This document shows positions 5,126 through 37,204 of a stretch of 58,562 nt of DNA, one piece after another. A program made the translations under genes and the position numbers. The notes beneath the pieces were generated by a model, which worked only from the letters and a program-made list of their open reading frames with translations, was not told where the DNA came from and did not search any database. Every line of letters begins with the position of its first letter. The first letter of the stretch is position 1. This DNA comes from a virus (taxonomy: Duplodnaviria; Caudoviricetes), in the IMG/VR virus record IMGVR_UViG_3300002461_000269, positions 1 through 58,562 of that record, one strand, 5' to 3'.

Positions 5126-8100
5126 ATGGCCGGCCGTGACCTCCTTGCGGGGATTCCGCGAGACGAGCTTCTGTCTGCCAGCGAACGCTTGCGCGCCAAA
5201 GCCCCCCAAGGCCGCGACCTTCTTGAAGGTGCGAGCGAGGGTGACTTGCGCGCGGCGGAAACACGCTTGCGCGAGCGCGCGGCACGCGACGAGGAAGCCA
5301 AAGCCAATCGGGAGAGCGCAGCCGAGGCAGCGCGCCGCCCCTCTGACCCCGGCGTAGGCTCGCTCCTTGGGCTTGGCAGCGCGCGCCGCCCTGCACCCGC
5401 AGCCGGGCCGAGCAGCTTCTTTGCCAGCGAGCGACCCGTTGCAGCAGAGCGCGAGCAATTCCTTGCCGAGAACCGCACCCGCGTTCCCACCGGCGAGATT
5501 AAGGCCGACAACTACATCGAGCAGCAGGCGGCCAAGATCGGTCAGGCTGGCCTTGGCCTTGCCGCCGGCGGTGCGCGCGCCGTCATCGCGCTGAGTGACA
5601 AGCTGCAACGCAATATCGGCGTCTTGCCCGGCGACCAGGCAGCGCGCGATGTGCTCACAACCTTTGCCGAAGACTCCGAGATCACCGCAGGCCGCCGCGT
5701 TGAAGGCACCACCTCGTTTGAGGACGTGAAGGAAAACCCGCTGCTGGCTGGCAAGTTCATCTTGGATGAAGGCCCGGCATCACTGGCGATCACGCCGCTG
5801 CTGCTTAATCCCTATGGGGCTGCGGCGGTTGGCCTTGGCACCGCAGGCGGCATCGCGCAGGAGCGCGCCGTCAATGATGGCCGCACCGAAGCCACGGCAG
5901 GCGACCTTGCCGTAGCAGCGCCGTTCGCAGCCGGGAGCCTGGCGCTCGACAAGTTCGGTTTCGATCGGTTGCTCAACCCCGGTTCGGGGGCGCTTATCAC
6001 CCGCATCCTGAAAGCGGGCGGCACCGAAGGCCTGACCGAAGGTACGCAGGGCGCGCTTGAAAACCTTGGCGGCTCGCTGGGTACAGAGCGCGGCGTTGAT
6101 TTGAACGAGCTGCGCGACAGCATCACCGCCAGCGCTCTTGTTGGCACCGGCGCAGGCGCAGGATTCCGCGGCGGCTCCGAAGCCGTTGACGCCACCGCGA
6201 AGGCAATCACTGCACGCCGCGCTGCACGCGCCACCATCACGCCCGACGACGAGGCAAGCCCGCTCGACACTGCCGACATTGAGGCAGGCCGCGCCGCACA
6301 GATCGAGGTCGAGCTAGGCAAGCAGCAGAGCAGCAACATCGAGCTTCCCGAGGTGGGCGGCCGCGTCAACGTGCTTGTGCCAGGCTCATCGACCCCGGTT
6401 GAGGGTACCTTTGCCGGTTCGTTCTCCGATGCGGATGGCGCCGGGATCGAGGTTATTCTCTCGGACGGCCAGACCATCCGCGAATACAACGACAACATTG
6501 AAGACGCCGGTTACAAGATTACCCCGATCCAGTCGGCCGCGAGTGGAAGCGCCGCCGCTGGCCCGGCCGCGCCTACTGCCAGCCCTTCGGTTCGCACCGG
6601 ACAGCAATCAGGCGCGGCCGGATTCGATATGGGCCGCTATCAGGCACAGAACAGCCAGATCGAAAGCGGCAACCGGCCCTACATCAAAGCTGACACGTCA
6701 TCGGCAAGTGGCCTGTTCCAGTTCGTCAAGAAGACATGGATTGCCGAGGGCGGCGCATGGGGCAATGACGATAGCCAGGCGTTCGGCGGCTTGAAGCCAT
6801 CGGCCGAGGAGCAGCGCGCCCGGTTCAAGTCTTTCACTGACAAGAACGTGGCAGGCATCAAGGCGATTGGCGCACCGGTCACCGACGGCAACGTCTACCT
6901 TGCGCACTTCCTCGGGATGGGCGGCGCGCGCTCGATCCTTGGCGCTGACCCGAACACGCCAGTGGCGCAGCTGCTCAAAGACGACCAGATCACCGCGAAC
7001 AAGAGCATCCTCAAAGGCAAGACCGCCGGCGACGTCATCGCCTGGGCCGCGCGCAAGATGGGCGGCGCGCTCCCCGCGCAGGCAGGCGGCGAGAGCTTTG
7101 CCGCGCCTGATACCGAGCGCGAACCCTTCGAGTTCAGCAACCGCGACGAGCCCGAGGCCGCAGCACCGGCCCTGATTGGCAAGCCTATCCCGCTGCGCGT
7201 CGAGGACCGTCAGGAAACCGCCGTGGTTCCCGCCACCTTGCAAGAGGTGCCGGTGCGCTATGCCGTGGCCGAGCTTGCGGATCTCGTCCCGTCCAACACC
7301 CCTGACGGCGCAGTGAACCCGGCATTCCCGGCCGAGCGTCAGCCCCGCGACCGTACCCGGGCCGCCAGTCAGAACCAGGTGCGCAACATCGCCACCAACC
7401 TTTACCCGCGCCTGCTTGGCCGCGACGTGAAGGCGAGCGACGGCGCCCCGATCATTTCCGCCGATGGTGTGGTCGATAGCGGCAACGGCCGCGTGATGGC
7501 GCTATCGCAGGCCTATGCGCAGGGAGGCCAGCAGGTCGACGCCTATCGGGCAATGCTCGAAGAAGAAGGCTTCGACGTAAGCGGCATGACGCAGCCTGTC
7601 ATGGTGCGCGTGCGCGATGAAATGCCGGCCGCCGATGTGGCGCGGTTCGTGCGTGACAGCAATGCGCGCTCCACCGCCAGCATGTCCGGCGTCGAGACGG
7701 CATCCACCGATGCAGCGAGCATGGGCTCCAACCTCCTCGGGCTTTACCGCGGCGGCGACCTCGACACGTTGAACAATTCCGATTTCGTGCGCGGCTTCAT
7801 GCAGGCATTCGTGCCGGCCAGCGAAGTTGGCGACATGGTAATGAAGGACGGCCGCCCATCGGCCAACCTCTTGCGCCGCATCGAGGCCGCGCTCCTGGTG
7901 CGCGCGCTGGGCCCGCAGAGCTTTGTCGAATGGCTGGTTGATTCCCGGTCGAGCAAGATCAAGTCGATTGGCAACGCGCTCATCGAGACGTCGGGCAAGC
8001 TGGCGCAGATGCGCGAGGCAGCAGCACAGGGCATCATTGACCCGTCGGTCGATATTTCCGCCAACGTGGCCGAGGCGGTGACGCTGGTTGACCGTGCACG

Positions 8101-11100
8101 GCGCGAAGACCGCGGCGTAGCCGAGTTCGTCAATCAGGTGGATGCGTTCTCCGGTACGCTCGACCCGATCACCGAGGCCGTTTTGCGGCTGATGTACAAA
8201 GACCCGGCGTTCAAGAAGGCGCGCTCGCAGAAGGATCTGACCAACGCGCTGACCTTCTACATCGAGCAGGCCATGGTGACGGTGCCGGGCGGCGGGCTGA
8301 TTGCCTCGACAAGCAACCCGGCCTCTGATATTCTGGCGCTCGCCAATGCAAGACAAGATGACCCCACAGCGCGACCCAGCGCCAAGCCCGCAGCAGCCGA
8401 CGGACAGATCGGCAGCCTGGTCGATCCTGTCGAAGACGTTCGACCGGCTGGCACAGACAGCGGAGAGCGAGCCGGAGAAGGCGTACAGCCGGGGGCTGGC
8501 ACAGAAGGCAGCGGCGAAAGCCAAGCCGATCTAACAGATAACCGTAGCGATGCGGTTCAGCGCGAAGGTGAGGCAGAGTCGGTAGATCCAACTGCCGGTG
8601 ATGACGCCTCACCTTCATACCGCCTCGAAGACACCACAAGCGGCAAGGGCATTGCCCTGTTCGATGCGACCCCGGCGCAGCTGGCGGCGATCGAAGCGGC
8701 TGGCATTGCCAAACCTGCGAAGCGCAGCGACGGCGCGATGGTGTTCAGCAAGAAGCGCGAGGCGGCTATTCGTGCTGCGCTGGAGCTTGTCGCTGAGGCA
8801 GATGGCCCAATTCTTGATCGTGCCGAGCGCCTGCGAATGGTGCGCGAAGCTGTCAACGGCAGCGCTGATACAAGCATAGAAGGCGACTTGATTGTAGGGC
8901 CGGGCCTGCGGCTGAACTTTCAGACGGCAAGCGAAAGCGAATTGCGAAGCGCCTTGGCCAGGGTGACAGAAACGGTCACCCCTGCGGAGGATGATACCGC
9001 CAAGGCGCGCGGCGCCGCTGCACCCACCACCGCAGGCAAAGGCCTTCTCGGCCGCAACCGTGACGGCAACGAGGTGTTCGAGGACGAGCGCGGCGTGCGC
9101 TCCTACGTCGAGAACGGTATTCGCCTGACCGAGAGCGTGCAGATGCGCCCGGTTCGTGGCGAGGGCATCCGCCTATCGGTCGACGTGGCGAACCGCTGGG
9201 AATCCTACAAGACCACCGAGGAGCTTGGGCAGGAGCAGGCGCAGGAAGAAACGCGCATCGGTCGAGAATACGATTCGATGCTCAGTGATATTCGCCGGGC
9301 ACAGCAACAGCTGGACTCTTTCGGGGGCGAGCAGGATGCGACGTTCAAGAGCGGCGGCGTCAAGAGCCGTGAGCGCGTGATCGTGAAGGCCACCAACGAG
9401 GATGGCTACAACAGCGTGCGCGACATTAAGGATCTCGCCCGCGGTGCGTTCATTGTCGACAGCATGGAGCAGGCCGAGGCGCTGGCGACAGCAATCGGTG
9501 AGCGCTTCACCGTTGTGCAGGACAAGGGCTGGCAGCGCCTTGATAGCGGCTATGCCGATCACAAGCTGATTGTCGAAAGCAGCGGCATCAAGGCCGAATT
9601 GCAGATCGTTCCGTCAGTGGTGTGGAATGCCAAGAAGGCCGGTGGCGCGAACAAGCTCTATGAGGAGCAGCGCGCGCCGGGCGTCTCGGAAGAACGCTAT
9701 GCCGAGCTTGAACGTCAGCAGCAGGAAATCTATTCGGCTGCGCTTGAGGCTACCGGCTTCGCCCAATTCGCCAGTGCGGCAAAGTCTGCATCGGGGAACT
9801 CGGCTTCGGCTTCTTCGCGCGAGAGCGAAACACCTTCCTTGGTCGCAAGCCCGGGCGCTTCGGCCCAGGTCGAGTCCTCGCGCCAGACCAATGCCAGCGG
9901 GGGTGCAATCGAAAACACGGCGGCAAGCCGGAACTCTACTTCTTTGAACGTGGGTGACACTTCAACCTCCGAGGACAATGTAGGAGCAAACTCTCAAGAA
10001 AGCAATAACGCAGAGGTTAATCGTTTCGCCAACAATACCCTGTTCACTGCCGACAAGGTAGAGGCTGCGCGCGCCCGCATGAAGGACCGCATGAAGCGGC
10101 TGAATGCCGGCGTCGATCCTGAAATGCTGATCGACGGCATGGTCATCGCTGGCGCCTACATCGAGGACGGCGTGCGCAACTTTGCCGACTTCGCCAAGCA
10201 GATGCGCGCCGACTTCGGTAACGGGATCACCCCGTACCTGCTGTCCTTTTGGGAAGGTGCCCGCAACTATCCCGGGCTGAACACCGAGGGCATGACCTCG
10301 CCTGACGTGTCGCGCGCGATCAGCGAAATGATTGCAGCCGATGCGGCGCCAACTGTTGAGCAATCCTCAACGGTTCAACCCGAACCGCAGGCCGACCTAC
10401 CCGAGCTTGCCCGCGTGTTCGTGGAAGCGCTGCGCACCCGCAGCTTTGCCAGCATCACCGAGGCCCGCGCCTTTGCCAAGGAGGCAACCGGCCAGGACTT
10501 CCGCCCCGGCACGCTCGAAGCCAAGAAGCTCGACGAGGCGATCGAGGCCGCCTTGGTGTTCAACGCCCGCGCGATCGTGGCCGAGGGCGCCGCACCGCTG
10601 GCAACCTATCGCCAGCTTGTCAGCCTCTACGGCCGTCAGCCCAACCTTGGCGTTCGCACCTCCACCAGCGTGCAGGAGCAGGCCTACTCGACCCCGGCAC
10701 CGCTCGCCTATCTGGCTGCACTGCGCGCCGGTATCAGCAACAGCACCACGGTGTACGAACCCAGCGCCGGCAACGGGATGCTGCTTATCACCGCCGACCC
10801 TGCCAAGGTGACCGCGAACGAGTTGAATGCTGACCGCGTGGCGCAACTGCGTGACCTCTACCCGCAGGCGACCATCACCCAGGGCGATGCGACCGCAGCC
10901 AATCCCGACGGGCCACAGCGCGACCGCATCATTGCCAACCCGCCGTTCGGCCCGGTCAAGGACGAGCAGGGCGACACTGTGATCTTCGACTTGGGCGACG
11001 GCTACGAGGCACGCGAAATCGACCACGCCATTTCGCTGCTTTCGCTCGACATGATGAAGAACGGCGGCAAGGCTGCGCTCATTGTTGGCTCTGTCGCCAA

Positions 11101-14100
11101 GCAAACCCGCAACCGCGAGGACGCCTACAACGGCAAGGCCAAGCGCGAGTTTTACTTCCGGCTCTATTCCGAGTACAATGTGACCGAGCACTTCACCGTG
11201 AACGGCGACCTGTACAAGAAGCAGGGCGCCGCTTGGCCGGTGGACGTGATCGTGATTGAGGGCCGCGGCAAGTCTGCCTTGCCGCTCCCCGCAGTCAAAG
11301 CCCCGCGGATCTACGATTCGTGGGATGCACTGGAGAACGCCCTTGTTGAGCCCGCTCAAGTATCTGGAGAAGCTGGAAGCGCGGACGCTGGAACTGCTGG
11401 AGCAGGACAGCGACCCGCAGGCGGCAATGGCGATGCTGGACGAGGCGGCAATCGAGGGCGGGCTGACACAGGCGACGTCACCGCAGAGCAGCCCGGCGAC
11501 GTTCGCGGCGAGCCTGCTGTCGGACAACCCGATGGCGTTGGACTGGATCAGCGCGAAGCGGGACGCGGAAGCGTGGACCCTGCACCCCGACCGGTTCGAG
11601 AGCCTGGACGAGATCGTCAGCGCAATGCGCCCCAGCCCCAACTAGCAGAAGGCGAAGCCGCGCCTGCACAGGTGCGCTACTCCCCGGCGAGCGGCAGCTA
11701 CTCGCTCGACACGCTTGTGCCCTACAACATGCAGACCGCCGCGCAGAACGCGCTGGCGCGCATCGAGGCCAAGCACGGCAGCATCGACGCCTATGTGGCC
11801 GACAAGCTCGGCTTCACCCGCGAGGAAATGGGCAAGCGCCTTTCCGCCGAGGCAACCGACGCGATCGGGCTGGCGCTCGACAACATGGACCGCGTTGACC
11901 CTGCCACTGGCAAGGGCGCCGCTTTCATCATTGGTGACCAGACCGGTATCGGTAAGGGCCGCGTCGTCGCATCGGTGCTGCGCTATGCCATGAAGGAAGG
12001 CCGCACTGCGATCTTCGTTACCGAGAAGCCCAACCTCTACGCTGACATTTACCGCGACATGATGGACGTCGGTGTGAAGGAAATGCTCGGACGTGAGCCT
12101 GTCCTAGTGATGACCAACGCCGGTGAAAGCATCCCGCTAGGCGGCGGCAAGGAGCTAAAGAGCGGCGGCAGCGCGGCGCACAGCAAGCGGCTGGAGCGTG
12201 TCGCGCGCGGCGAAGAACAGTTCGACCTGCTGATGACGACATACTCGCAGATGCAGACCGTCAAGGGGCAGGTGACCCAGCGCCAGCAGGTGCTTGAGAA
12301 GCTGGCCGAGGGCGCGATCATCGTGTTCGACGAAAGCCACAACGCCGGCGGTCAGGGGCCGAACGAGCGGCGCGACAAGAAGGCCGAGAAGGGCGAGGTT
12401 GCCCCGAACCGCGCCGAGTTCGCGCGGATGCTGGCGCGCAAGGCGCAAGGCGTGATGTTCTCCAGCGCCACCTATGCCAAGCGCCCCGAGGTGATGGACC
12501 TCTACGCCCGCACTGACATGGGCCTTGCCGTGGCCGACCCGAAGGATTTGGGCGAAGCGATTGCCAACGGCGGCGTGCCATTGCAGCAGGTGCTTGCCTC
12601 TGCGCTGGCCGATGCAGGCCAGTACGTGCGCCGCGAACGGACATGGGAAGGTGTCAATTACCGCACCCCGCGCGTGCCGGTGGACGAGGCCGTCTATGGC
12701 GACGTGACCGAGATCCTACGCAGCATCCGCGAGTTTGAGGACGCCTTCATCACAGAGGTGAAAGAGGCGATCGACAAGGACGCCCGCGCCGAAGCGAAAA
12801 GCCTTTCGGCTGACGGTTCGGTTGGCGGCGCCGGCGTAAGCTCGACCAACTTCACGTCGGTGATGCACAACATCATCGAGCAGATGCTCTTGTCCCTGAA
12901 AGCGGGCCCGGCCGCCGACCGCGCGCTTGAGGCACTGCGCGCCGGCCGCAAGCCTGTCATCACCGTGGCGAACACCATGGGTTCGTTCATTCAGGAATAC
13001 GCCGACGAACGGAACATCAAGACCGGCGGCGCGATCGACCTCGACTTTGGCGCGGTGTTCGAGCGCTACCTCGACCGCACCCGGCAGTACACCGTGCGCA
13101 AGCCGTTCTCGAAGGAGAAGGGCGAGAAGAAATACATCAGCGATAGCGAGCTTGGCCCCGAGGGGCTGGCTGCATTCCGCGCCATTCAGGCGAAGATCCG
13201 CGAAACCGCATTCGGCCCGCTCCCGATTTCCCCGATCGACTTCATCGCACAGCGCTTGAAGGACGAGGGCTACACCGTGGGCGAGATTACCGGCCGCTCG
13301 CACACCATTGACTATGCGGGCGGTGCACCGACCCTGCGGCTGCGCGGCGCCAAGGAAACCGGGATTGCCGGGCGCCTGGCTGCGGTGAACGGCTTCAACT
13401 CCGGCAAGATCAACGCCATGATCTTGAACCAGTCAGGCTCGACCGGCTTGTCGATCCATGCCAGCGACCAGTTCAAGGATCAGAGCCCGCGCACGATGAT
13501 TATCGCGCAGGCCGAGCGCAACGTCGACACGCACATGCAGATGCTTGGCCGTATCCACCGTACCGGACAGGTGGTGCTTCCCGAGTATGACCAGCTTGTA
13601 GCCGAGGTGCCGGCAGAAATGCGCCCCGCCGCTGTGCTGGCAAAGAAGATGGCGAGCCTCAACGCCAACACGACGGGCGCGCGCGGTTCGGCCGTGACGT
13701 CGGACGAGATCCCCGACTTTATGAACGACTTCGGGGACGAGGTGATTGCTCGCATCATGGAGGAAGACACCGACCTCTACCGCGTGCTGGGCAAGCCGCT
13801 GGGTGAGAGCAAGAACGGCGGCTATATCCGCGAAGGCGCGGCCCGCAAGGTGACCGGCCGCCTCATGCTCCTGCCGCTGGCCGAGCAACAGGATTTCTAC
13901 GACAACTTCCTTGGTCAGTACCAATCGTACCTGGCACAGAAGGAAGCGGCTGGCGAAGCTGGGCTCGAAGCCAAGACCCTGCCGCTCGATGCGCGGATCG
14001 TGGACGCCAGCAATGTTGTGGCTGCGACCCGCGCCGGCACCCCATTTGGTGAAGCGGTGGTAATGGAGACGCTCGACGTCAAGCGGCTGGGCAAGCCTAT

Positions 14101-17100
14101 GTCGTCAGCGCAAGTGCTGGAGCGCATCAGTGAGACGATTGGCGCCAGCGTGCCAGACGGCAGCCCGGCCAGCGCGCTCGACCAGCTGCGCCGCGATGGT
14201 GAAGGCTGGATCAGCGACACCGTATCGCAGCCTGCGCTGACCGAGTTCGAGACGTACCGCCAGCAGACCGTCGACAATGCCAGCGAGAAGGCGGCGCCGG
14301 AGATTGCCGACCGCCTCAATCAGAACCGACTGGCCTTCCGCCAGCTGCTCGACATTGCCTACCCCGGGCGCGGTGTCCTGCTCTACAACGAGAACGGCGA
14401 CCCCTTGGGCGGCGTGGTCATCAACGTGGACAAGCGCGGCAAGGCCAAGAACCCTATCGCCTTGAGCACATGGCACGTCACCATTGCGACGGCCGATTCC
14501 TCGCGCCAGATCACCATTCCGCTTTCGCAGCTGCGCACCCGCAACATGCCGGAGGATGCGGGCCGGTTGATCGAAGCGACGTCGCGGATCGAGGGCTACC
14601 CTGTGCTCGAAGCCTTCGACAGTATGCAGGCCGAGGCGCGCGAGAAGCGTGTGATCTTCACCGGCAATATCCTCGCTGCCTACAAGGAGACGAACGGCAA
14701 GGGCCAGGTGGTCAACTTCGTGGGCGAGGATGGCAGCGTGCGCCCCGGCATCATGATGCGCCGCGGCTACAACCATAGCGGTGTGGTGAAGAACCGCCCC
14801 GTCGACTTCCGTATGCCCAAACAGGTGATCGAGTGGATGCGCGGCGGGCGCGAAGCCTACGGCGCCGGCGTATCGGTGGCGCTGGATGGCGGCCAGATCA
14901 AGGTGACGACAGCCGCATCGAAGCGCGGCGGCGGGGACGTGTTCCTTAACCGCGATGTGATTGCGGCGCTGGGCACGGACTTTGTGAAGACGTCGGGCGG
15001 CATGGTCGCGCGCGCACCGGAGAGCAAGGCAACCGCAGTCGTGGCCGCGCTGATGCGGACGGGCGCCAAGCTGCAAGCCAAGACCGACCTTGCCGACGCG
15101 CGCCAGCTTGTTGCCGGCAGCCAGGATGCACTGGACAGCCGCCCCGACCTATTCGACGCCCCAGCACAGCCCGAACGCACCATGACGCAGGCGCAGCGCG
15201 CCGAGCTTGAGGCACGCCAGCAGCAGGGCAAGGCGCGGCGCGGCGGGCAGCAGGGGCTTGGCGACCAAGAGGGCGGGCTGTTCAGCAGCGAGCGCGACCA
15301 GGGCAGCCTGTTCCTGCGCACCGAGAGCGGCGAGCCTATCACCGGCCAACAGGCCAGTGAGCTTGAAGCGGATCTTCGCGCGCGCCTAGATGCAATGGGC
15401 CTGCAACGGGTGAACCTTCGCGTCGGCACGCGGGCGCAGCTGGCACGGCCGGGAGCAACGCGCGGGCCGGATGGCCAATACCTCCCGTCGCTCAAGCTGA
15501 TTGCGGTGGCGAGCGATGCGGTCAATGGCAGCACGTTCACGCTGGGCCATGAGGCCGTGCACGCGCTGCGCGACCTTGGCGCGATCAGCCAGAGCGATTG
15601 GAGCTTGCTTGAGGGCGCGGCGTGGACGCGCAATCCCGAAGCGCAAGCCAGCATCAAGCGCCGCTACCCCGACCTGCGCGAGAATGCACAGCGCGAGGAA
15701 GCCGTGGCCGATCTGTTCGGGCGCTTCCAGGTCAACAGCGAGGGAACGGTGGGCGCGATTGCGCGCATCATCCGCCGCACGCTGGGGATCTTCGAGGCTA
15801 TCCGCAATGCACTGCGCGGCAAGGGCTTCACCATGGACCGCCGCGCGTTTGACGTGCTGGAGGACATTCGCACCGGCCGCACAGCGCAGGACATTGGCCG
15901 GTTCGAGACGGGCAACGCGATCAACAAGCGGAGCAATCCCAATACCCCGACGGGCGGGCCTGACCAGTTCGCGGAGAGCGAAGGCTCGCTCGACAGCCGC
16001 GCCGCCGTCGTCAGCCTGGCCGGCAGCGACCCGACGTGGAAGGGCAAGACCGCCGTAGCCTTCGACAAGTTCCGCACCACGATGCAGGACCGCTACATGC
16101 CGATGCTGCGCACCCAGCGCACGATCGAGACAATGACCGGCGAGAGCCTGCCCAATTCCATGAACCCCTACTTGGGCGAGGAATTGATGACGGGCCGCAT
16201 CGGCTCGCGTCTGGAGAAGCTGCACGAAGACATGATTGGCCCGCTGTTCGACGACATGGCGCGCGCCAAGGTGAACGTCGACGAGCTTGAAACCTTCCTC
16301 TACGCCCGGCACGCGCCGGAGCGGAACGCCAAGATGCAGGAGATTAACCCTGACCTGGCACCGGGCGAAGGCTCCGGCATGACTGACATTGAGGCGATGG
16401 CGGTGATGAACCGTGTTCGCAAGGCCGGGAAGATGGAGGACATGGAGCGGCTGGCCGCCAAGGTCGACGCCCTGCGCGATAGCGCGCTCGACTTCCGCGT
16501 CGAATCCGGTTTGATGAGCCAGAAGGCGGCTGACGAATGGCGCTCGACCTATGAATACTACGTCCCTCTGCGCGGCTTCAAGGAGATTGAGGGCGAGCTT
16601 TCCGAGGAAACGGCCGAGCGTATCAACAAGTCAGGCGGCGGGATCAACGTGCGCGGGCCGGAGAGCAAGCGCGCATTCGGGCGCCGGTCAAAGGCCGATA
16701 GCCCACTGTCCTACCTGATCTTGCAGGCAGAGGAGGCCATCGTGCGCGGGGAAACCAACCGTGTCGCGCAGCGCTTCATCGAGCTTGCCCGCGCCAATCC
16801 TGACGAGGATTTCTGGCAGGTCAACAAGGTGTCGGTCAATCGCCGGATGAACCCCGAGAGCGGTCAGGTCGAGGAGGTGGTGAGCTACAACCTCGCCGCC
16901 AAGGACAAGGATTACACCGTCGTCGCCAAGATTGACGGCAAAGAGGTGCGCGTCACCATGAACCAGGCCAACCCGGCCGCGCGCCGGCTTGCCAATTCGA
17001 TGCGCAACATCACCCAGCACCAGCTGGATTGGGTGACCAAGTACCTCGGGACGGTCAACCGCTACCTTTCGACGGTCAACACCACCCTGAACCCCGAGTT

Positions 17101-18703
17101 CATCATCACCAACGCCTTCCGCGACATGCAGACGGCAGCGATCAACTTGCAAAGCATCGACGTCCCGGGCATCGGTAAGGCGGCGGCTGGGCACTACAAG
17201 GGCGCGCTGGCCGCATCGCTCAAGGGATCGTGGGGCAAGGGCTCCGGCGAATGGAAGCAGTATTACGACGAGTTCATGCTTGCCGGTGGCCGGGTGTATT
17301 TCAACAACGTCGAGAACGTGGAGCAGATCCGCGCGCGGGTTAAGAGTTCGTTCGACATGGCGAACCTCAAGGCGGGCAACGGGGGCGAGGCACGCCTTCA
17401 CGTCAAGCGCGGGTTTATCGCTGTGCGCGATGCGATCGAGAACACCAACCAGGGGGTTGAGAACGCGGTGCGCCTTGCCGCCTATCGTGCGGCGCGCGAG
17501 GCAGGCGTTGACCAGGACAAGGCCGCGTCGATTGCCAAGAACCTGACCGTCAACTTCAACCGCCGCGGCACGTTCGGCCCGGCGCTGAATGCGGCGTACC
17601 TGTTCTACAATGCGTCGGTGCAGGGCTCGGTCACGCTGTTCCTCGCAGCCAAGCATCGCAAGGTGCAGAAGGTGCTTGCCGGAATTGCGGTTGCGGGCGC
17701 GCTCAACGAGTTCCTCAACATGATGCTGTCCGACGACGACGACGACGGCGAGAGCTTCTACGACAAGATCCCGTCCTACGAGAAATCGCGCAACATGATC
17801 GTGATGACGAGCGGCTCGACCTACATCAAGATCCCGCTGGCCTACGGGTACGGCGCGATTTGGGAGGCAGGCCGTACAGCCAGCGAGATTTATCGCCGCG
17901 GTGGCGACAAGTGGCAGGAGAGCGCGGGCAACCTTGTGACCACCATCGTCGACAGCTTCAACCCGGTGGGCGGGACGGACAACATCATCAACTTCTTTGC
18001 GCCGACGATCCTCGATCCGTTGGTCGACATTGAGTTGAACAAAGACTTCTCCGGCAAGCCGATCCTGCCGAACCAAAGCCCTTACGACGTGGAGGAGCCC
18101 GACGCGCAGCGCTATTTCGGGAGCGTGGGAACGCACTGGCGCGAGGTCACGGACTTCCTGACGAACGCGACCGGGGGCAATGTGGTCGAGCCCGGCTGGG
18201 TGGACGTGAGCCCCGAGACGCTCGAATATATGTTCGGCTTTGTGACGGGCGCGGCCGGTGGCTTTGTCGACCGCAATGCCGCTCTGCCTGACAAGGTTAT
18301 CAGGGGCGAGGTCGAGGCCAACGACGTACCGTTCGTGCGCAAGCTCATCGGCGGCGAGCCCGGCTGGCAGGACACAAGCCGGTATTACGATCGCGTGGGC
18401 GAGGTCGAGCAGGCCTACGAATACACCAAGCGCTACATCGAGGCCGAGCAGATCCCCGAGGCGCGCGCCTATGCCGAGCGCAAGGAGAAGGTGCTGACGC
18501 TGGTGCCGGCGATGAAGGAAGCGCAGAAGCTCATGCGCGAGGTCCGCAAGGAAAAGCGTACGATCGACTTCGAGTATGAAATGGGCCGGCTGGACGACAC
18601 GCAATATGAGGCTCGCCGTGAGCGCGCGAAAGAGGTAGAAGGGCGGATTGTCTCGGCGTTCAACACGCGCTGGAATGCTACCCTCTACCCCAAGGAGGAA
18701 TGA
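5126..18703 (+). CDS. Giant 4525-aa DarB-like polyvalent virion protein (SLT, ddrB-like ParB, RelA/SpoT-like NTase, N6-adenine MTase, strawberry-notch SF2 helicase, zincin-like peptidase, LPD38-like)
   Basis: SLT: IESG..SSASGLFQF, YLAHFLG (~6630-7065). ParB-like: QPRDR, DGAPII, SGNGR (~7245-8340). RelA/SpoT-like: KSRERVIVK, DLAR, SGYADHK, ELQ (~9270-9740). MTase: YSTP, EPSAGNG, NPPF (~10650-11330). Helicase: GDQTGIGKGR, DESH, SAT, QMLGRIHRTGQ (~11690-13950). Peptidase: HEAVH...EEAVA (~15550-15710). LPD38-like: YIKIPLAYGYG near the C-terminus. Confidence 0.9.
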   Translation: MAGRDLLAGIPRDELLSASERLRAKAPQGRDLLEGASEGDLRAAETRLRERAARDEEAKANRESAAEAARRPSDPGVGSLLGLGSARRPAPAAGPSSFFASERPVAAEREQFLAENRTRVPTGEIKADNYIEQQAAKIGQAGLGLAAGGARAVIALSDKLQRNIGVLPGDQAARDVLTTFAEDSEITAGRRVEGTTSFEDVKENPLLAGKFILDEGPASLAITPLLLNPYGAAAVGLGTAGGIAQERAVNDGRTEATAGDLAVAAPFAAGSLALDKFGFDRLLNPGSGALITRILKAGGTEGLTEGTQGALENLGGSLGTERGVDLNELRDSITASALVGTGAGAGFRGGSEAVDATAKAITARRAARATITPDDEASPLDTADIEAGRAAQIEVELGKQQSSNIELPEVGGRVNVLVPGSSTPVEGTFAGSFSDADGAGIEVILSDGQTIREYNDNIEDAGYKITPIQSAASGSAAAGPAAPTASPSVRTGQQSGAAGFDMGRYQAQNSQIESGNRPYIKADTSSASGLFQFVKKTWIAEGGAWGNDDSQAFGGLKPSAEEQRARFKSFTDKNVAGIKAIGAPVTDGNVYLAHFLGMGGARSILGADPNTPVAQLLKDDQITANKSILKGKTAGDVIAWAARKMGGALPAQAGGESFAAPDTEREPFEFSNRDEPEAAAPALIGKPIPLRVEDRQETAVVPATLQEVPVRYAVAELADLVPSNTPDGAVNPAFPAERQPRDRTRAASQNQVRNIATNLYPRLLGRDVKASDGAPIISADGVVDSGNGRVMALSQAYAQGGQQVDAYRAMLEEEGFDVSGMTQPVMVRVRDEMPAADVARFVRDSNARSTASMSGVETASTDAASMGSNLLGLYRGGDLDTLNNSDFVRGFMQAFVPASEVGDMVMKDGRPSANLLRRIEAALLVRALGPQSFVEWLVDSRSSKIKSIGNALIETSGKLAQMREAAAQGIIDPSVDISANVAEAVTLVDRARREDRGVAEFVNQVDAFSGTLDPITEAVLRLMYKDPAFKKARSQKDLTNALTFYIEQAMVTVPGGGLIASTSNPASDILALANARQDDPTARPSAKPAAADGQIGSLVDPVEDVRPAGTDSGERAGEGVQPGAGTEGSGESQADLTDNRSDAVQREGEAESVDPTAGDDASPSYRLEDTTSGKGIALFDATPAQLAAIEAAGIAKPAKRSDGAMVFSKKREAAIRAALELVAEADGPILDRAERLRMVREAVNGSADTSIEGDLIVGPGLRLNFQTASESELRSALARVTETVTPAEDDTAKARGAAAPTTAGKGLLGRNRDGNEVFEDERGVRSYVENGIRLTESVQMRPVRGEGIRLSVDVANRWESYKTTEELGQEQAQEETRIGREYDSMLSDIRRAQQQLDSFGGEQDATFKSGGVKSRERVIVKATNEDGYNSVRDIKDLARGAFIVDSMEQAEALATAIGERFTVVQDKGWQRLDSGYADHKLIVESSGIKAELQIVPSVVWNAKKAGGANKLYEEQRAPGVSEERYAELERQQQEIYSAALEATGFAQFASAAKSASGNSASASSRESETPSLVASPGASAQVESSRQTNASGGAIENTAASRNSTSLNVGDTSTSEDNVGANSQESNNAEVNRFANNTLFTADKVEAARARMKDRMKRLNAGVDPEMLIDGMVIAGAYIEDGVRNFADFAKQMRADFGNGITPYLLSFWEGARNYPGLNTEGMTSPDVSRAISEMIAADAAPTVEQSSTVQPEPQADLPELARVFVEALRTRSFASITEARAFAKEATGQDFRPGTLEAKKLDEAIEAALVFNARAIVAEGAAPLATYRQLVSLYGRQPNLGVRTSTSVQEQAYSTPAPLAYLAALRAGISNSTTVYEPSAGNGMLLITADPAKVTANELNADRVAQLRDLYPQATITQGDATAANPDGPQRDRIIANPPFGPVKDEQGDTVIFDLGDGYEAREIDHAISLLSLDMMKNGGKAALIVGSVAKQTRNREDAYNGKAKREFYFRLYSEYNVTEHFTVNGDLYKKQGAAWPVDVIVIEGRGKSALPLPAVKAPRIYDSWDALENALVEPAQVSGEAGSADAGTAGAGQRPAGGNGDAGRGGNRGRADTGDVTAEQPGDVRGEPAVGQPDGVGLDQREAGRGSVDPAPRPVREPGRDRQRNAPQPQLAEGEAAPAQVRYSPASGSYSLDTLVPYNMQTAAQNALARIEAKHGSIDAYVADKLGFTREEMGKRLSAEATDAIGLALDNMDRVDPATGKGAAFIIGDQTGIGKGRVVASVLRYAMKEGRTAIFVTEKPNLYADIYRDMMDVGVKEMLGREPVLVMTNAGESIPLGGGKELKSGGSAAHSKRLERVARGEEQFDLLMTTYSQMQTVKGQVTQRQQVLEKLAEGAIIVFDESHNAGGQGPNERRDKKAEKGEVAPNRAEFARMLARKAQGVMFSSATYAKRPEVMDLYARTDMGLAVADPKDLGEAIANGGVPLQQVLASALADAGQYVRRERTWEGVNYRTPRVPVDEAVYGDVTEILRSIREFEDAFITEVKEAIDKDARAEAKSLSADGSVGGAGVSSTNFTSVMHNIIEQMLLSLKAGPAADRALEALRAGRKPVITVANTMGSFIQEYADERNIKTGGAIDLDFGAVFERYLDRTRQYTVRKPFSKEKGEKKYISDSELGPEGLAAFRAIQAKIRETAFGPLPISPIDFIAQRLKDEGYTVGEITGRSHTIDYAGGAPTLRLRGAKETGIAGRLAAVNGFNSGKINAMILNQSGSTGLSIHASDQFKDQSPRTMIIAQAERNVDTHMQMLGRIHRTGQVVLPEYDQLVAEVPAEMRPAAVLAKKMASLNANTTGARGSAVTSDEIPDFMNDFGDEVIARIMEEDTDLYRVLGKPLGESKNGGYIREGAARKVTGRLMLLPLAEQQDFYDNFLGQYQSYLAQKEAAGEAGLEAKTLPLDARIVDASNVVAATRAGTPFGEAVVMETLDVKRLGKPMSSAQVLERISETIGASVPDGSPASALDQLRRDGEGWISDTVSQPALTEFETYRQQTVDNASEKAAPEIADRLNQNRLAFRQLLDIAYPGRGVLLYNENGDPLGGVVINVDKRGKAKNPIALSTWHVTIATADSSRQITIPLSQLRTRNMPEDAGRLIEATSRIEGYPVLEAFDSMQAEAREKRVIFTGNILAAYKETNGKGQVVNFVGEDGSVRPGIMMRRGYNHSGVVKNRPVDFRMPKQVIEWMRGGREAYGAGVSVALDGGQIKVTTAASKRGGGDVFLNRDVIAALGTDFVKTSGGMVARAPESKATAVVAALMRTGAKLQAKTDLADARQLVAGSQDALDSRPDLFDAPAQPERTMTQAQRAELEARQQQGKARRGGQQGLGDQEGGLFSSERDQGSLFLRTESGEPITGQQASELEADLRARLDAMGLQRVNLRVGTRAQLARPGATRGPDGQYLPSLKLIAVASDAVNGSTFTLGHEAVHALRDLGAISQSDWSLLEGAAWTRNPEAQASIKRRYPDLRENAQREEAVADLFGRFQVNSEGTVGAIARIIRRTLGIFEAIRNALRGKGFTMDRRAFDVLEDIRTGRTAQDIGRFETGNAINKRSNPNTPTGGPDQFAESEGSLDSRAAVVSLAGSDPTWKGKTAVAFDKFRTTMQDRYMPMLRTQRTIETMTGESLPNSMNPYLGEELMTGRIGSRLEKLHEDMIGPLFDDMARAKVNVDELETFLYARHAPERNAKMQEINPDLAPGEGSGMTDIEAMAVMNRVRKAGKMEDMERLAAKVDALRDSALDFRVESGLMSQKAADEWRSTYEYYVPLRGFKEIEGELSEETAERINKSGGGINVRGPESKRAFGRRSKADSPLSYLILQAEEAIVRGETNRVAQRFIELARANPDEDFWQVNKVSVNRRMNPESGQVEEVVSYNLAAKDKDYTVVAKIDGKEVRVTMNQANPAARRLANSMRNITQHQLDWVTKYLGTVNRYLSTVNTTLNPEFIITNAFRDMQTAAINLQSIDVPGIGKAAAGHYKGALAASLKGSWGKGSGEWKQYYDEFMLAGGRVYFNNVENVEQIRARVKSSFDMANLKAGNGGEARLHVKRGFIAVRDAIENTNQGVENAVRLAAYRAAREAGVDQDKAASIAKNLTVNFNRRGTFGPALNAAYLFYNASVQGSVTLFLAAKHRKVQKVLAGIAVAGALNEFLNMMLSDDDDDGESFYDKIPSYEKSRNMIVMTSGSTYIKIPLAYGYGAIWEAGRTASEIYRRGGDKWQESAGNLVTTIVDSFNPVGGTDNIINFFAPTILDPLVDIELNKDFSGKPILPNQSPYDVEEPDAQRYFGSVGTHWREVTDFLTNATGGNVVEPGWVDVSPETLEYMFGFVTGAAGGFVDRNAALPDKVIRGEVEANDVPFVRKLIGGEPGWQDTSRYYDRVGEVEQAYEYTKRYIEAEQIPEARAYAERKEKVLTLVPAMKEAQKLMREVRKEKRTIDFEYEMGRLDDTQYEARRERAKEVEGRIVSAFNTRWNATLYPKEE
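8306..8334 (+). promoter_or_regulatory. Internal sigma70-type promoter for nested gene 1
   Basis: TCGACA (8306-8311), 17 bp spacer, TATTCT (8329-8334), with an extended -10 TG. Lies 11 bp before the ATG at 8346. Confidence 0.6.
8346..8534 (+). CDS. Nested gene 1 (+1 frame, 62 aa) in linker after ParB-like domain
   Basis: MQDKMTPQ...AAWSILSKTFDRLAQTAESEPEKAYSRGLAQKAAAKAKPI*. Codons are mostly G/C-ending in this frame while the host frame is a low-complexity linker. Has its own promoter. Confidence 0.6.
   Translation: MQDKMTPQRDPAPSPQQPTDRSAAWSILSKTFDRLAQTAESEPEKAYSRGLAQKAAAKAKPI
8564..8616 (+). other. Long stem-loop inside giant gene, just downstream of nested gene 1
   Basis: GAAGGTGAGGC...GCCTCACCTTC perfect 11-bp inverted repeat enclosing an inner stem CGGTAG/CTGCCG. 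Confidence 0.6.
9730..9960 (-). CDS. Nested gene 2 (antisense, 76 aa), candidate antitoxin of the RelA/SpoT-like domain
   Basis: GGAGG RBS (9966-9970) 5 nt before GTG. Acidic protein MSPTFKEVEFRLAAVFSIAPPLALVWREDSTWAEAPG.... The host frame here is a Ser-rich antisense shadow. Has its own promoter. Confidence 0.7.
   Translation of the reverse strand: MSPTFKEVEFRLAAVFSIAPPLALVWREDSTWAEAPGLATKEGVSLSREEAEAEFPDADFAALANWAKPVASSAAE
9977..10005 (-). promoter_or_regulatory. Antisense sigma70-type promoter for nested gene 2
   Basis: Minus strand TTGCTT, 17 bp spacer, TACATT, in an AT-rich patch 6 nt before the RBS. Confidence 0.65.
11343..11645 (+). CDS. Nested gene 3 (+1 frame, ~100 aa) between MTase and helicase domains
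   Basis: GGAGA RBS at 11332 then TTG. Helical acidic protein (LKYLEKLEARTLELLEQDSDPQAAMAMLDEAA...). About 9 of 100 codons end in A/T by hand count. The host frame is a G/R/D/P-rich shadow. Confidence 0.7.
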   Translation: MLSPLKYLEKLEARTLELLEQDSDPQAAMAMLDEAAIEGGLTQATSPQSSPATFAASLLSDNPMALDWISAKRDAEAWTLHPDRFESLDEIVSAMRPSPN

Positions 18704-18915
18704 TGCTTCTCTGGATCTATACCGTGGTGCTGGCCGCCGCGTTCGCGCTGCCCTTCTATGCGCTCTGGCGCACGCTGGGGACAGAGAAGGTGCCGAAGCG
18801 CTTGGCCCGGCGCTATGCGCTGGTGATCTTCGCGGGTGCGTTTCTTGTGATTGGGACCGCCAACATTGCGCACTACACTTCGCAGGGGAAGCCCAACTTT
18901 GGGCAGACTGGGTAG
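18700..18915 (+). CDS. Small two-TM membrane protein
   Basis: AAGGAGG RBS, coupled to the giant gene stop, with two hydrophobic helices. Confidence 0.7.
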   Translation: MMLLWIYTVVLAAAFALPFYALWRTLGTEKVPKRLARRYALVIFAGAFLVIGTANIAHYTSQGKPNFGQTG

Positions 18916-19144: not shown

Positions 19145-20425
19145 TCACCCCCTTCGAGCAAGCCCCAGCAGATCCGCCGCCGGCGCCATCCCTTCCATGA
19201 GCAGCGCGGCCCACTCCTCCGCAATCTCCCGGCGCTTCGCCATGTGCTCCGAACGGTTATAGGCCGCCTCGACCTTATCCTTGGGGACGTGGGCGAGCAT
19301 CGCGTCGATGACGTATCGGTCAGCCGGGCGGCGCTCATTCATCACGGTGGAGAATGCCGCGCGCCAACCGTGGGGAACGTGCCGGCTATGCCACCCGCAC
19401 CGATTGTAGAGGTAGCCGATTGCGTTCTCGCATAGCGGGCGGTGGGCGTGGCGCTGGCCGGGGAAGACGTAGGCACAATTGCCGGTCAACTGGTGCACGA
19501 CTTGCACTACTTCGAGCGCTTGGGCGGTGAGCGGAACGACATGATCGTATGCCTCCTCGCCCTTGCGCTCCTTCTCCAGTTTCATCTTCTCGGCCGGGAT
19601 GCGCCAAAGGGCCATGTCCCATTTTTCGTCGGCATTTGAGGCACCAAAATTAACACCCTCGAACTCGCTCCACTCGGCGCGGCGCAACGTGCCTGGTCGC
19701 ACGGCGGTCAACGCCAGCAGGCGCGATGCCAGCAGGGTGACGGGGTAAGCGCCCGACGCCTCGGTGACGGTGAGGATCTCGCGCAGCTGCGCCACGTCCA
19801 CGATCGCCGGCTGCTTCTTGGCGCGCGGCTTCCGCTTCAATGCCGCGATGACGTTGGCCGCGGGATTGTGTGTCACCAGGCCTTGCGACTCTGCCAGCGC
19901 GAACACTGCCTGAATACGTTGCCGCAGCCGGTGTGCAGTTTCGACCGCGCCGCGCTTCTCGACCGGGCGCAGGGCTTCGAGCACGATCGGGCTGTCTATG
20001 TCGACTAGGGCAAGGTTGCCGATGCGCGGGAAGACGTCGCGCTCCAAGCTGTTGATGACGTCGGCCCGGTGTATCTCGGTCCAGCGCGGCCCGTTGAGGT
20101 CGTGCCATTCCCGCGCCACCGTCTCAAAGGTCGATCGGCCGGAGGCCCGCCGGTCGCGTTCCTCTTTGCGCTTTTGCATGGAAGGATCGAACCCATCGCG
20201 CAGGATCTTGCGCGCCTGGTCGCGTGCCTCGCGCGCCTCGGACAAGGTGACGTCGGGATAGGCGCCGATTGCCATCTGCTTTTCCTTGCCCGCAAAACGG
20301 TAGCGCCACCGCCAGAGCTTCGATCCATTGGAGCGAATCAGCAGGGTGAGCCCTGCACCGTCGGCCATGCGATAGTCGCGCGGTGCGGGCTTTGCTTTGC
20401 GCGCGGCGAGGTCGGTCAGCTTCAT
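19145..20425 (-). CDS. int: Tyrosine integrase, P4-like with arm-binding domain
   Basis: N-terminal DGAGL..GSKLWRWRYRF. Catalytic R (VRPG), HGWR, LAH and AAY. GGAG RBS before the ATG at 20425. Confidence 0.95.
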   Translation of the reverse strand: MKLTDLAARKAKPAPRDYRMADGAGLTLLIRSNGSKLWRWRYRFAGKEKQMAIGAYPDVTLSEAREARDQARKILRDGFDPSMQKRKEERDRRASGRSTFETVAREWHDLNGPRWTEIHRADVINSLERDVFPRIGNLALVDIDSPIVLEALRPVEKRGAVETAHRLRQRIQAVFALAESQGLVTHNPAANVIAALKRKPRAKKQPAIVDVAQLREILTVTEASGAYPVTLLASRLLALTAVRPGTLRRAEWSEFEGVNFGASNADEKWDMALWRIPAEKMKLEKERKGEEAYDHVVPLTAQALEVVQVVHQLTGNCAYVFPGQRHAHRPLCENAIGYLYNRCGWHSRHVPHGWRAAFSTVMNERRPADRYVIDAMLAHVPKDKVEAAYNRSEHMAKRREIAEEWAALLMEGMAPAADLLGLARRG

Positions 20426-20440
20426 ATCAGTCTCCGCATT

Positions 20441-20703
20441 TGTGGGCATCGGTGCCCACATCGGGGCGCGGTGCCCACATTGGTGCCCGCACATTGGTGA
20501 GAGCGCTTGTCGCAATGTGATACAATATGGGACAAGCTCTAGCATCGCCTGCCGTCATTGTCTTGTCTGTATGGGACGGGATGCACGGCTATGATATTAA
20601 TCGGGTACGGAGCGGGTGCCCGTCGAAACCCCATAGAGAAACGGCAGAATTGCGCCATTTATTGAGGGTGCGCGCCGCGCGATGCCCACACCGATGCCCA
20701 CAC
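20441..20703. other. Probable attP site
   Basis: Arm-type repeats TGCCCACA flank both sides (20441-20494 and 20681-20703). Central imperfect inverted repeat CGGGTAC-N7-GTGCCCG at 20602-20622. Confidence 0.7.
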
Positions 20704-27802: not shown

Positions 27803-28177
27803 ATGGCTAATGCCACGGACGACCGTTTGCGTCTGCTTATCGAAAGAGCCGAACGGCTTGAAGAAGAAAAGCAGGGTATCGCTGACGATATAAAGGATGT
27901 GTTCTTAGAGGCAAAAGCCGTCGGCTACTGCCCGAAGACCATGAAGCAGGTCATCAAGCTGCGGAAGATGAAGCCGCAGGACCGCAGCGAGCAGGAAATG
28001 CTGCTCGAAACCTACATGAACGCGCTCGGCATGGAAGGTACGCCGCTCGGCAATTGGGCTGCAACCGCTGCCAAGGCCGACGCGGAAGGCACCGGCATCA
28101 GCATGTCGATCAACGGCGGCGAACAGATCCCGCTCAACAAGACCGCCGCGCGCAAAATGGCCGAGGCCGAGGCATGA
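27803..28177 (+). CDS. gapR: GapR/DUF2312 nucleoid-associated protein homolog
   Basis: DDRLRLLIERAERLEEEK..IADDIKDVFLEAKAVGY...LRKM...LETYMNALGM. Confidence 0.9.
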   Translation: MANATDDRLRLLIERAERLEEEKQGIADDIKDVFLEAKAVGYCPKTMKQVIKLRKMKPQDRSEQEMLLETYMNALGMEGTPLGNWAATAAKADAEGTGISMSINGGEQIPLNKTAARKMAEAEA

Positions 28178-36373: not shown

Positions 36374-36457
36374 TGCGCCTCGCGTTGACCCTGACCACCG
36401 CCTTCACAGGCATGACATTTTTACTGGCGCTCGGTGCGCTGATTGGGAGAATTTGAG

Positions 36458-37204
36458 ATGGAACAGACGATTGAGAAATATGAAGTCCGCAGCCGCTGGT
36501 CTGGTGTGGTGCAGTTCACGGCTGAAATCTCGGTAACGCCCGATATGCTGCCGAGCGTCAAGATGGGATTGGCCGTAAAGTGGGCGAGCAAAAACGATGC
36601 CGACCTGAGCGGTGCCTACCTGAGCGGTGCCGACCTGAGCGGTGCCGACCTGCGCGGTGCCGACCTGAGCGGTGCCTACCTGAGCGGTGCCTACCTGAGC
36701 GGTGCCAACCTGAGCGGTGCCTACCTGAGCGGTGCCAACCTGAGCGGTGCCTACCTGCGCGGTGCCTACCTGAGCGGTGCCGACCTGAGTGGTGCCTACC
36801 TGAGCGGTGCCTACCTGCGCGGTGCCGACCTGAGCGATGCCGACCTGAGCGGTGCCTACCTGAGCGGTGCCGACCTGCGCTTCATTAAGTCCGATTTTTT
36901 CATGATCCTTGCAATGGGCCACGGCGAAGTTCTGCATTTGATTAACGCGCTGCGCGATGGCCGCGTGGACGGTTCAACCTATGAAGGCGAATGCGCCTGC
37001 CTTGTCGGCACGCTGGAAAATGGCGGCGCTACCGGCATTCCACATCAAGCATCTTCGCCCGCTGAGCGATGGTTTGTGCCGATCCGCAAGGGCATCAAGC
37101 CGGGTGACGATAACGAGGGTGGCTTTCGTTCCGGGAAGGCTCTCGAATGGGCGCTGGAATATGTGCGTCTGACGGGGATCGAATTGAAGGAACCCACCCA
37201 ATGA
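36458..37204 (+). CDS. Pentapeptide repeat protein
   Basis: 19 A(D/Y/N)L(S/R)G-type repeats and a C-terminal domain with [18 protein letters not shown]. Confidence 0.92.
36599..36883 (+). repeat. 15-bp tandem repeat x19
   Basis: Unit GCC(G/T/A)ACCTG(A/C)GCGGT, near-identical copies. Confidence 0.95.

Follow-up and report, generated by a model that had tools for sequence, protein, structure and literature searches.

The DNA considered here (hereafter the window) is an entire virus record of IMG/VR, IMGVR_UViG_3300002461_000269, 58,562 bases long, rated as 99% complete and with a GC content of 59–67%. A single open reading frame (ORF) of 4525 codons occupies positions 5126–18703 of its plus strand and, judging by the GC content at its three codon positions (0.66/0.47/0.79), is a real gene of this genome. 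It encloses a domain of the RelA/SpoT homologue (RSH) synthetase type, followed by a Ser/Thr-rich tail, and on the opposite strand runs a short ORF that had been proposed to encode an antitoxin. The features on which the first part of our argument depends are the following.

5126–18703, plus strand: gene of a phage-type polyvalent protein of 4525 amino acids (Pfam ddrB-ParB, AAA_34, Helicase_C_4 and LPD38; PHROGs transglycosylase, DarB-like antirestriction and DNA methyltransferase)
9203–9787, plus strand: RSH (Tas1-like) synthetase domain, residues ~1360–1554, by fold, profile and conserved motifs
9362–9388, plus strand: KSRERVIVK, residues 1413–1421
9422–9442, plus strand: DIKDLAR, residues 1433–1439
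9545–9565, plus strand: SGYADHK, residues 1474–1480
9593–9604, plus strand: AELQ, residues 1490–1493
9752–10045, plus strand: Ser/Thr-rich tail, predicted to be disordered, with the pattern SASGNS...PS...SPGA..Q...SRQT...R.STS.N, recognised by a hidden Markov model (HMM)
9730–9960, minus strand: antisense ORF of 76 codons (GTG at 9960–9958, stop TAG at 9732–9730), judged a shadow ORF
9966–10005, minus strand: promoter-like TTGCTT-17-TACATT with GGAGG (TTGCTT at 10005–10000, TACATT at 9982–9977, GGAGG at 9970–9966), judged a chance match

The four plus-strand motifs had led to the original prediction of a RelA/SpoT-like synthetase domain, and this part of it was borne out by the fold, by a profile match to Tas1 and by the retention of residues that are invariant in the family. 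Each motif occurs once and in the frame of the long ORF. Chance can be set aside, because the motifs coincide with alignment columns that are invariant or nearly so throughout a large family, which is named as that of the RSH synthetases by profile and by fold searches alike. An AlphaFold2 model of 9203–10000, built on an alignment of 55 sequences, had a predicted local distance difference test (pLDDT) score above 94 over model residues 1–190. When this model was compared with the Protein Data Bank (PDB) by Foldseek, 68 matches were obtained at E ≤1e-3, and all 27 displayed ones were RSH synthetases: SaEAS, Tas1, B. subtilis SAS1, RelP, Rel, CapRel, SpoT and RelA. SaEAS came first (E 3.9e-7), Tas1 was matched at 5e-7, and CapRel stood at rank 18. 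The top matches in a library of viral structures carried the names DdrB-like, ART-PolyVal-like, RelA/SpoT (including one from Sinorhizobium phage phiN3) and Tas1.

An exhaustive phmmer search over 1.84 billion cluster representatives (50% identity) returned 478 matches at E ≤1e-3, 138 at ≤1e-10 and 10 at ≤1e-30. Many of these homologues are proteins of 1000–5500 amino acids, while some are stand-alone proteins of 175–350 amino acids, and purifying selection on the family is clear across the 478 clusters. A family profile was needed to place the domain, because single-sequence searches of Pfam and the PDB gave either nothing or a weak match, the latter being an alignment of the C-terminal helices to 8vx3 (E 0.004). 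We therefore aligned the window domain with 24 short homologues taken from the 150 listed (alignment A1). Against the PDB, the A1 profile matched Tas1 (6ox6) at E 1.5e-21 and 80.6 bits, the exported alarmone synthetase SaEAS (8vx3) at E 2.6e-7 and 33.8 bits, and the RelQ-type structures 3l9d and 2be3 at E 0.008 (19 bits) and E 0.06, respectively; CapRel gave no match at E ≤1. The profile is thus nearer to Tas1 than to the small alarmone synthetases (SAS) that make (p)ppGpp or to the toxic SAS (toxSAS) that target tRNA. Tas1 was still first (E 7e-6) when the profile was reduced to four sequences, namely the window and its three nearest relatives.

Other routes to relatives were less productive. 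The Atlas search led only to unnamed Pseudomonadota clusters and to one cluster with RelA_SpoT on 17% of its members. Searches for related loci with the single protein against viral contigs found none, and those with a second alignment (A2) gave pattern matches of which 0 of 50 were confirmed in genome contigs and 0 of 85 in metagenome contigs. Two independent related loci were obtained in all: L002, which lies on the same contig as L003 and is 64% identical to the window, and L004.

Conservation of the active site was counted over 155 aligned rows of the family, with the following result.

syn1: K in 153/155 rows and, further on, K in 153/155; K1413 and K1421 in the window
syn2: D in 154/155 and, two positions on, R in 154/155; D1436 and R1439 in the window
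syn3: G in 144/155, Y in 150/155, any residue, D in 154/155, R in 129 or H in 14, K in 146/155
syn4: E in 155/155, any residue, Q in 152/155; E1491 and Q1493 in the window
syn5: Y in 151/155 and, further on, R in 145/155

All strongly conserved residues of syn1 to syn5 are retained in the window, the key ones being K1413, K1421, D1436, R1439, G1475-Y1476, D1478, K1480, E1491, Q1493 and Y1512. The window motifs align to VKPIESIKEK, QDIAG, SGYRSYH and AEIQI of the RelQ-type 3l9d. The roles described for such positions in passages of PMC11782079 are those of a donor-phosphate helix, a Mg2+ aspartate, a base-stacking tyrosine of the G-loop and a catalytic ExQ. As far as sequence can tell, the active site is apparently intact and the domain is probably an active enzyme. 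Its product is a matter of a best guess, which from the kinship with Tas1 would be (p)ppApp.

The protein that carries the domain is composite, as can be seen from its other modules and from the genes next to it.

6653–7075, plus strand: lytic transglycosylase, phiKZ-gp144-like, residues ~510–650 (phmmer against PDB 3bkh, the phiKZ endolysin gp144, E 5e-6; phrog_4067, 1.3e-16)
7241–7615, plus strand: DdrB-like ParB domain, residues 706–830 (PF18763, E 1.4e-34)
Residues ~1628–1747 of the same protein: DarB-like segment (phrog_10089, 5.8e-51)
10673–11089, plus strand: N6-adenine DNA methyltransferase-like region (NPPFG at 10937–10951; Pfam N6_Mtase at E 6e-4, just under the cut-off; several PHROGs methyltransferase families)
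11834–13765, plus strand: helicase of the Strawberry-notch type (AAA_34 and Helicase_C_4), residues 2237–2880 (PF13872, 6.8e-24; PF13871, 6.2e-21)
15548–15562, plus strand: HEAVH (HExxH) motif, residues 3475–3479, occurring once, in a stretch of ~600 residues with no family match
17759–18337, plus strand: LPD38 domain, residues 4212–4404 (PF18857, E 6.6e-35)
18700–18915, plus strand: hydrophobic protein of 71 amino acids, its start overlapping the stop of the giant gene (GC at third codon positions 0.82; weak membrane-type Pfam matches only)
19145–20545, minus strand: tyrosine integrase (Pfam Phage_int_M, Arm-DNA-bind_3 and Phage_integrase; phrog_1)

Several unrelated effector domains thus share one polypeptide with DdrB-ParB, LPD38 and a transglycosylase, as is expected of a polyvalent protein. 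Nine relatives of 2999–5616 amino acids have both PF18763 and PF18857, with Zeta toxin, ART-PolyVal, LPD3, Eco57I, SNF2 and M23 as variable modules; precomputed RelA_SpoT matches were present in 0 of these nine. Among eight scanned relatives of 1100–1400 amino acids, six have SLT, GH108, a phage tail lysozyme, DdrB-ParB or a Mu portal upstream of the RSH domain. A megablast of the giant gene against collections of plasmids and phages gave no match. The piece around HEAVH matched no Pfam or PHROGs family; by analogy with the polyvalent proteins treated in part of PMC5512222, this motif might belong to a zincin processing peptidase (MPTase).

The giant gene stands at the end of a block in which Pfam and PHROGs recognise, upstream of it, a terminase, a portal-like protein, a major head protein and tail proteins; lysozyme-like and acetyltransferase-like proteins follow the tail genes, and the giant gene then closes the block. 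Four upstream genes are syntenic with those of the relative L002. The giant gene is the last one of the late structural operon of a temperate phage: the tyrosine integrase adjoins it on the other strand, which both marks the phage as temperate and ends the late operon. A sketch of what such a protein might do was given by Iyer, Burroughs, Anand, de Souza and Aravind in 2017 (PMC5512222): in the portion of that work on which we draw, RelA/SpoT, DdrB-ParB, LPD38 and lysozyme are listed as polyvalent domains specific to the phage type, and polyvalent proteins are proposed to enter with the phage DNA. Gene position, domain content and the fusions seen in the relatives make it plausible that the giant protein of the window likewise becomes part of the virion and reaches the new host along with the DNA.

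Taken together, such evidence induces us to favour, at slightly better than even chances, the following reading: the domain is a catalytically intact RSH pyrophosphokinase of a large phage-borne family, its nearest characterised relative is Tas1/Apk1, and it is delivered by the virion. The giant protein would be made late, taken up by the virion and ejected alongside the DNA at the next infection, perhaps after proteolytic processing. In the cell, the domain would use ATP as donor and place its pyrophosphate on the 3'-OH of an acceptor molecule; this acceptor would most likely be ATP or ADP, and the product (p)ppApp. This nucleotide would depress ATP and purine synthesis, so that the host or its ATP-dependent defences might be slowed in the first minutes, while the methyltransferase, helicase and ParB modules would protect the incoming DNA.

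A number of observations weigh against this reading. The Pfam model RelA_SpoT (PF04607) was matched neither by the domain (E ≤10) nor by the six-frame translation of the window (E ≤1), and only 2 of the 25 members of A1 matched it at E ≤1, the best at 2.7e-5. The syn5 His, found in 97 of the 155 rows, is Asn in the window. One might suppose that the domain has degenerated into an inactive fold whose retention is a matter of structure, as both the missing Pfam match and the His-to-Asn change would allow; this we regard as very improbable, given that the strongly conserved residues of the catalytic motifs are all retained and that purifying selection acts across the 478 clusters. The syn3 motif is a further point of the same kind: it reads GYADHK (GYxD[RH]K in the family), which is neither GxN nor SxH, so that the mark of an adenosine 3'-pyrophosphokinase (Apk) is not present. 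According to section 16 of PMC12226406, GxN marks the Apk enzymes and SxH the (p)ppGpp synthetases, and the swapping of syn3 motifs described in that section failed to convert specificity. Because GYADHK fits neither signature, the product may differ from that of Tas1. Finally, no immunity gene was recognised in our scans, as would be in keeping with an enzyme of lower toxicity or under another form of regulation, and an ATP drain of Tas1 grade would harm the phage's own replication.

The syn3 motif bears most directly on the acceptor. An active RSH pyrophosphokinase might instead modify the 3'-CCA of tRNA, as CapRel, FaRel2 and PhRel2 do, convert GTP or GDP to (p)ppGpp, or act on another nucleotide, for instance a signalling molecule of a defence system, and we treat this as a possible though rather unlikely course. 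In its favour, the family motif GYxD[RH]K, with D in 154/155 and K in 146/155 rows, departs from the signatures of both Apk and (p)ppGpp-making RSH enzymes; CapRel is among the fold matches, even if only at rank 18; the motif swaps reported in that same section of PMC12226406 imply that specificity is unreadable from motifs; and SaEAS, the second-best PDB relative by profile, makes both (p)ppApp and (p)ppGpp according to passages of PMC12691689. What speaks for the acceptor of Tas1 is that Tas1 is by far the closest solved relative, with 80.6 bits against 33.8 and 19, and that CapRel remains unmatched by the profile at E ≤1.

The comparison with these two solved relatives can be made more closely. 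Tas1/Apk1, the (p)ppApp-synthetase toxin of the P. aeruginosa type VI secretion system (T6SS; 6ox6), shares the fold of the window domain and, among solved structures, is its best relative by sequence. Its syn1 and syn2 (IKSRERAMQK and IKDLAR) are nearly those of the window, whereas its syn3 is GYSGVN in place of GYADHK. Tas1 travels by a PAAR/T6SS module and has Tis1 next to it; the window domain, in contrast, is internal to a phage protein of 4525 amino acids and has no recognised immunity gene. SaEAS of Streptomyces albidoflavus (8vx3) is the top match by fold, and its C-terminal helices align directly with those of the window, but in the account given in parts of PMC12691689 it is a Sec-exported enzyme of a single domain that makes (p)ppApp and (p)ppGpp, unlike the internal domain described here.

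The matter of immunity brings in another alternative, in which the domain is a weapon resembling polymorphic toxins that the lysogen, or particles after their release, would direct at competitors, and not an aid to the phage's own infection. Such a role is discussed for MuF-Apk2 of temperate phages in passages of PMC10083569, and Tas1 itself is an interbacterial toxin. Passages of that paper also have the phage Apk2 toxins accompanied by Tis1-like and often Aph1 immunity genes. An HD domain of the Aph1 type (HD_4) was absent from all six frames of the whole record, and no hydrolase or immunity family was found among 30 ORFs and seven pieces scanned with Pfam (six pieces of the giant protein and the downstream ORF of 71 amino acids) or among 20 ORFs and six pieces scanned with PHROGs, these scans leaving out some 20 small ORFs and a model of Tis1. 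The protein of 71 amino acids at 18700–18915 seemingly has two membrane spans and bears no resemblance to a soluble protein of immunity. Since no immunity gene was recognised, HD_4 being absent in six frames, and since the companion methyltransferase, helicase, DarB-like and ParB modules point to the protection of incoming DNA, we hold the use against competitors to be unlikely. Under the reading that we favour, the producer cell is more likely protected by late timing, by inactivity of the enzyme within the unprocessed polyprotein or by sequestration in the capsid.

Among phage systems, the closest parallel in concept is that of the phage polyvalent proteins with RelA/SpoT of PMC5512222, whose companions are the same (DdrB-ParB, LPD38 and lysozyme) and which, in the portion of that work on which we draw, are predicted to let phages trigger an alarmone-like response at entry. 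Compared with the proteins described there, the window is a phage of 63% GC with a GapR-like gene, and its domain belongs to a Tas1-like clade; this clade may already lie within the set of PMC5512222. Apk2 is likewise an RSH domain of phages on a protein expected in the capsid, as treated in parts of PMC10083569 and PMC12226406, and the authors of the former propose its co-injection with the DNA. The carriers differ: in Apk2, it is a minor-capsid domain, MuF, followed by tis1-like and often aph1 genes, whereas here it is a polyvalent protein, in which neither PAAR nor MuF was found by Pfam in the whole protein or its six pieces. The DarB and DdrB proteins of phage P1 are also large, packaged in the virion and equipped with methyltransferase, helicase and ParB-like modules, and PHROGs calls parts of the window protein DarB-like; the partial descriptions of the P1 proteins that we drew on name no RSH domain, while the window protein has one. 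The presence of RelA/SpoT domains in polyvalent proteins of phages has thus been on record since 2017, and (p)ppApp synthetases encoded by phages were described in 2023–2025. Within the literature library searched, no paper was found that joins 'polyvalent protein' and 'ppApp', and a 2025 survey of Apk1 homologues, as told in section 9 of PMC12691689, halted its iterations to keep out large multidomain proteins.

Directly after the domain comes the Ser/Thr-rich tail. Its HMM, built from 8 seeds, matches 37 of 150 family proteins, always immediately behind the RSH domain, with non-seed matches down to 6e-20. Between the window and L002, the tail is 79% identical and the RSH domain 59%. In the AlphaFold2 model, the pLDDT of the tail is below 55. 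Docking of the tail on the domain was considered and dropped, the predicted disorder being evidence neither way. Our guesses are that the tail is a processing site or a regulatory element. In shorter relatives (L004 3001–3900; P0016, P0044, P0096 and P0135), a C-terminal piece of ~100 residues with a conserved end (…A…C-L) follows domain and tail, and the window protein is without this piece.

With such a tail in view, it is tempting to suppose that the 478 clusters (50% identity) form a large clade of RSH pyrophosphokinases delivered by virions, with the window domain as its type example, the GYxD[RH]K motif as its hallmark, a product or target other than the (p)ppApp of Tas1, and the Ser-rich tail as a switch for silencing and release. 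A processing or autoinhibition site in the tail, for instance, would silence the enzyme in the producer cell and release it after ejection. We put this forward as a doubtful idea only. If it were true, the switch would do the work for which every toxic synthetase known so far has an immunity protein of its own.

The tail is also where the original prediction had placed a convergent antisense antitoxin, encoded by the ORF of 76 codons, expressed from its own promoter and neutralising the domain in lysogens. The letters are all present as described, but each of the elements is weak or common, and the antitoxin itself was not supported: base rates, the loss of its start and Shine-Dalgarno (SD) motif in L002, and the want of a homologue or of a Pfam match all speak against it. 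The hexamers agree with the consensus at 3/6 and 4/6 positions and do not figure in the list of the promoter scan; the window contains 110 minus-strand and 123 plus-strand sites that are equal or better, and 21 of these run antisense to the giant gene. As many as 31 antisense ORFs of at least 76 amino acids lie in the giant gene, 15 of them in the frame of the candidate, and around 9730–9960 all three antisense frames are open (61, 115 and 87 codons). Combinations of a weak promoter, SD, start and ORF of at least 60 amino acids occur nine times in the window, eight on the plus and one on the minus strand, so that the candidate is the sole minus-strand site with the full set; this and the existence of the elements themselves count in its favour.

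The openness of the frame has a simple explanation. The ORF occupies the antisense frame that shares its third codon positions with the giant gene, where a stop requires a sense Tyr codon, or His or Gln after NNT, and such a frame stays open in GC-rich genes. The sense stretch beneath the ORF has one Tyr in 86 residues, against 1.85 expected per 77. The acidity of the product (13 D+E, 6 K+R) results from Ser and Ala codons read backwards. For this pair of frames, with its coinciding third positions, a conservation test that separates the strands is impossible, which weakens our case, and we relied instead on base rates, on the loss of start and SD and on the conservation of the sense tail as protein. 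The comparison was made with one close relative (L002) and one distant one (L004). The GTG and GGAGG are replaced in L002, where the promoter region has diverged (34% sense identity after 9961); on the other side, the same antisense frame is open there over 134 amino acids from a different start. In L004, antisense frames are open over hundreds of codons and are uninformative. Codon identity among conserved residues of the window and L002 is 0.57 in the tail and 0.59 in the domain, and because it is alike in both, synonymous sites are under no extra constraint.

No homologue of the ORF was found among proteins of 41–133 amino acids, nor any match in Pfam, and the ORF does not show the conserved small paired gene that is typical of toxSAS toxin–antitoxin systems. 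The sense segment that it overlaps shows conservation at the protein level in 37 of 150 members of the family, and the antitoxin and immunity genes known for toxSAS lie beside the toxin gene in the same orientation and do not overlap it in antisense. Moreover, a lysogen would need no antitoxin, because the late gene is repressed. In our opinion, an expressed antisense antitoxin is scarcely credible, and the sequence indicates that the ORF has arisen as a side effect of GC-rich codon usage, where the sense strand encodes little Tyr and much Ser.

Some further observations concern the record as a whole. Scans of the window with Rfam (gathering thresholds) and for tRNA found none. Beyond the integrase lie a cI-like helix-turn-helix repressor, RecT, methyltransferases and a GapR-like DNA-binding protein (27803–28177, plus strand, E 1e-31), the last beside the repressor. 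Alphaproteobacteria and the phages that infect them are the typical bearers of GapR, and the gene hints at an alphaproteobacterial host. The integrase stands in mid-record (19145–20545), and the last ORF, 56191–58560, runs off the end into apparent tail genes; because of these two facts, the record probably represents a circular or excised form that was assembled in permuted order, and not a prophage cut at its attachment sites. The terminase large subunit ORF (39535–40374, plus strand) has only 279 amino acids and matches the N-terminal domain alone; the remainder may be in a neighbouring ORF, or the gene may be interrupted. A pentapeptide-repeat protein at 36443–37204 (plus strand; Pfam E 5.6e-56), in the early or middle region, might mimic DNA or counteract defences. 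Within the giant gene, an in-frame start at 16187 (plus strand), 838 codons before the end, comes after an SD-like motif and a site that weakly resembles a promoter; chance is the probable cause, but a separate C-terminal product could arise from this start. All sampled words of 8500–11500 were found in six sequencing runs of two studies (activated-carbon and drinking-water metagenomes), and each of the six is flagged as a run from which this DNA may itself have come, which makes them weak as independent evidence. There was no RNA run among the 11 sequencing runs that contain the stretch or part of it.

For annotation, the lesson is that antisense ORFs equipped with promoter and SD motifs inside GC-rich genes require a check of base rates. 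As for the family, it is large, is missed by the Pfam RelA_SpoT model and is fused to proteins with virion and anti-restriction features. Its syn3 motif, GYxD[RH]K, and its conserved tail are the features still to be explained. We believe that it offers a clean system in which to ask whether phages inject enzymes of nucleotide signalling when they enter a cell, and by what means these enzymes do no harm while virions are being assembled.

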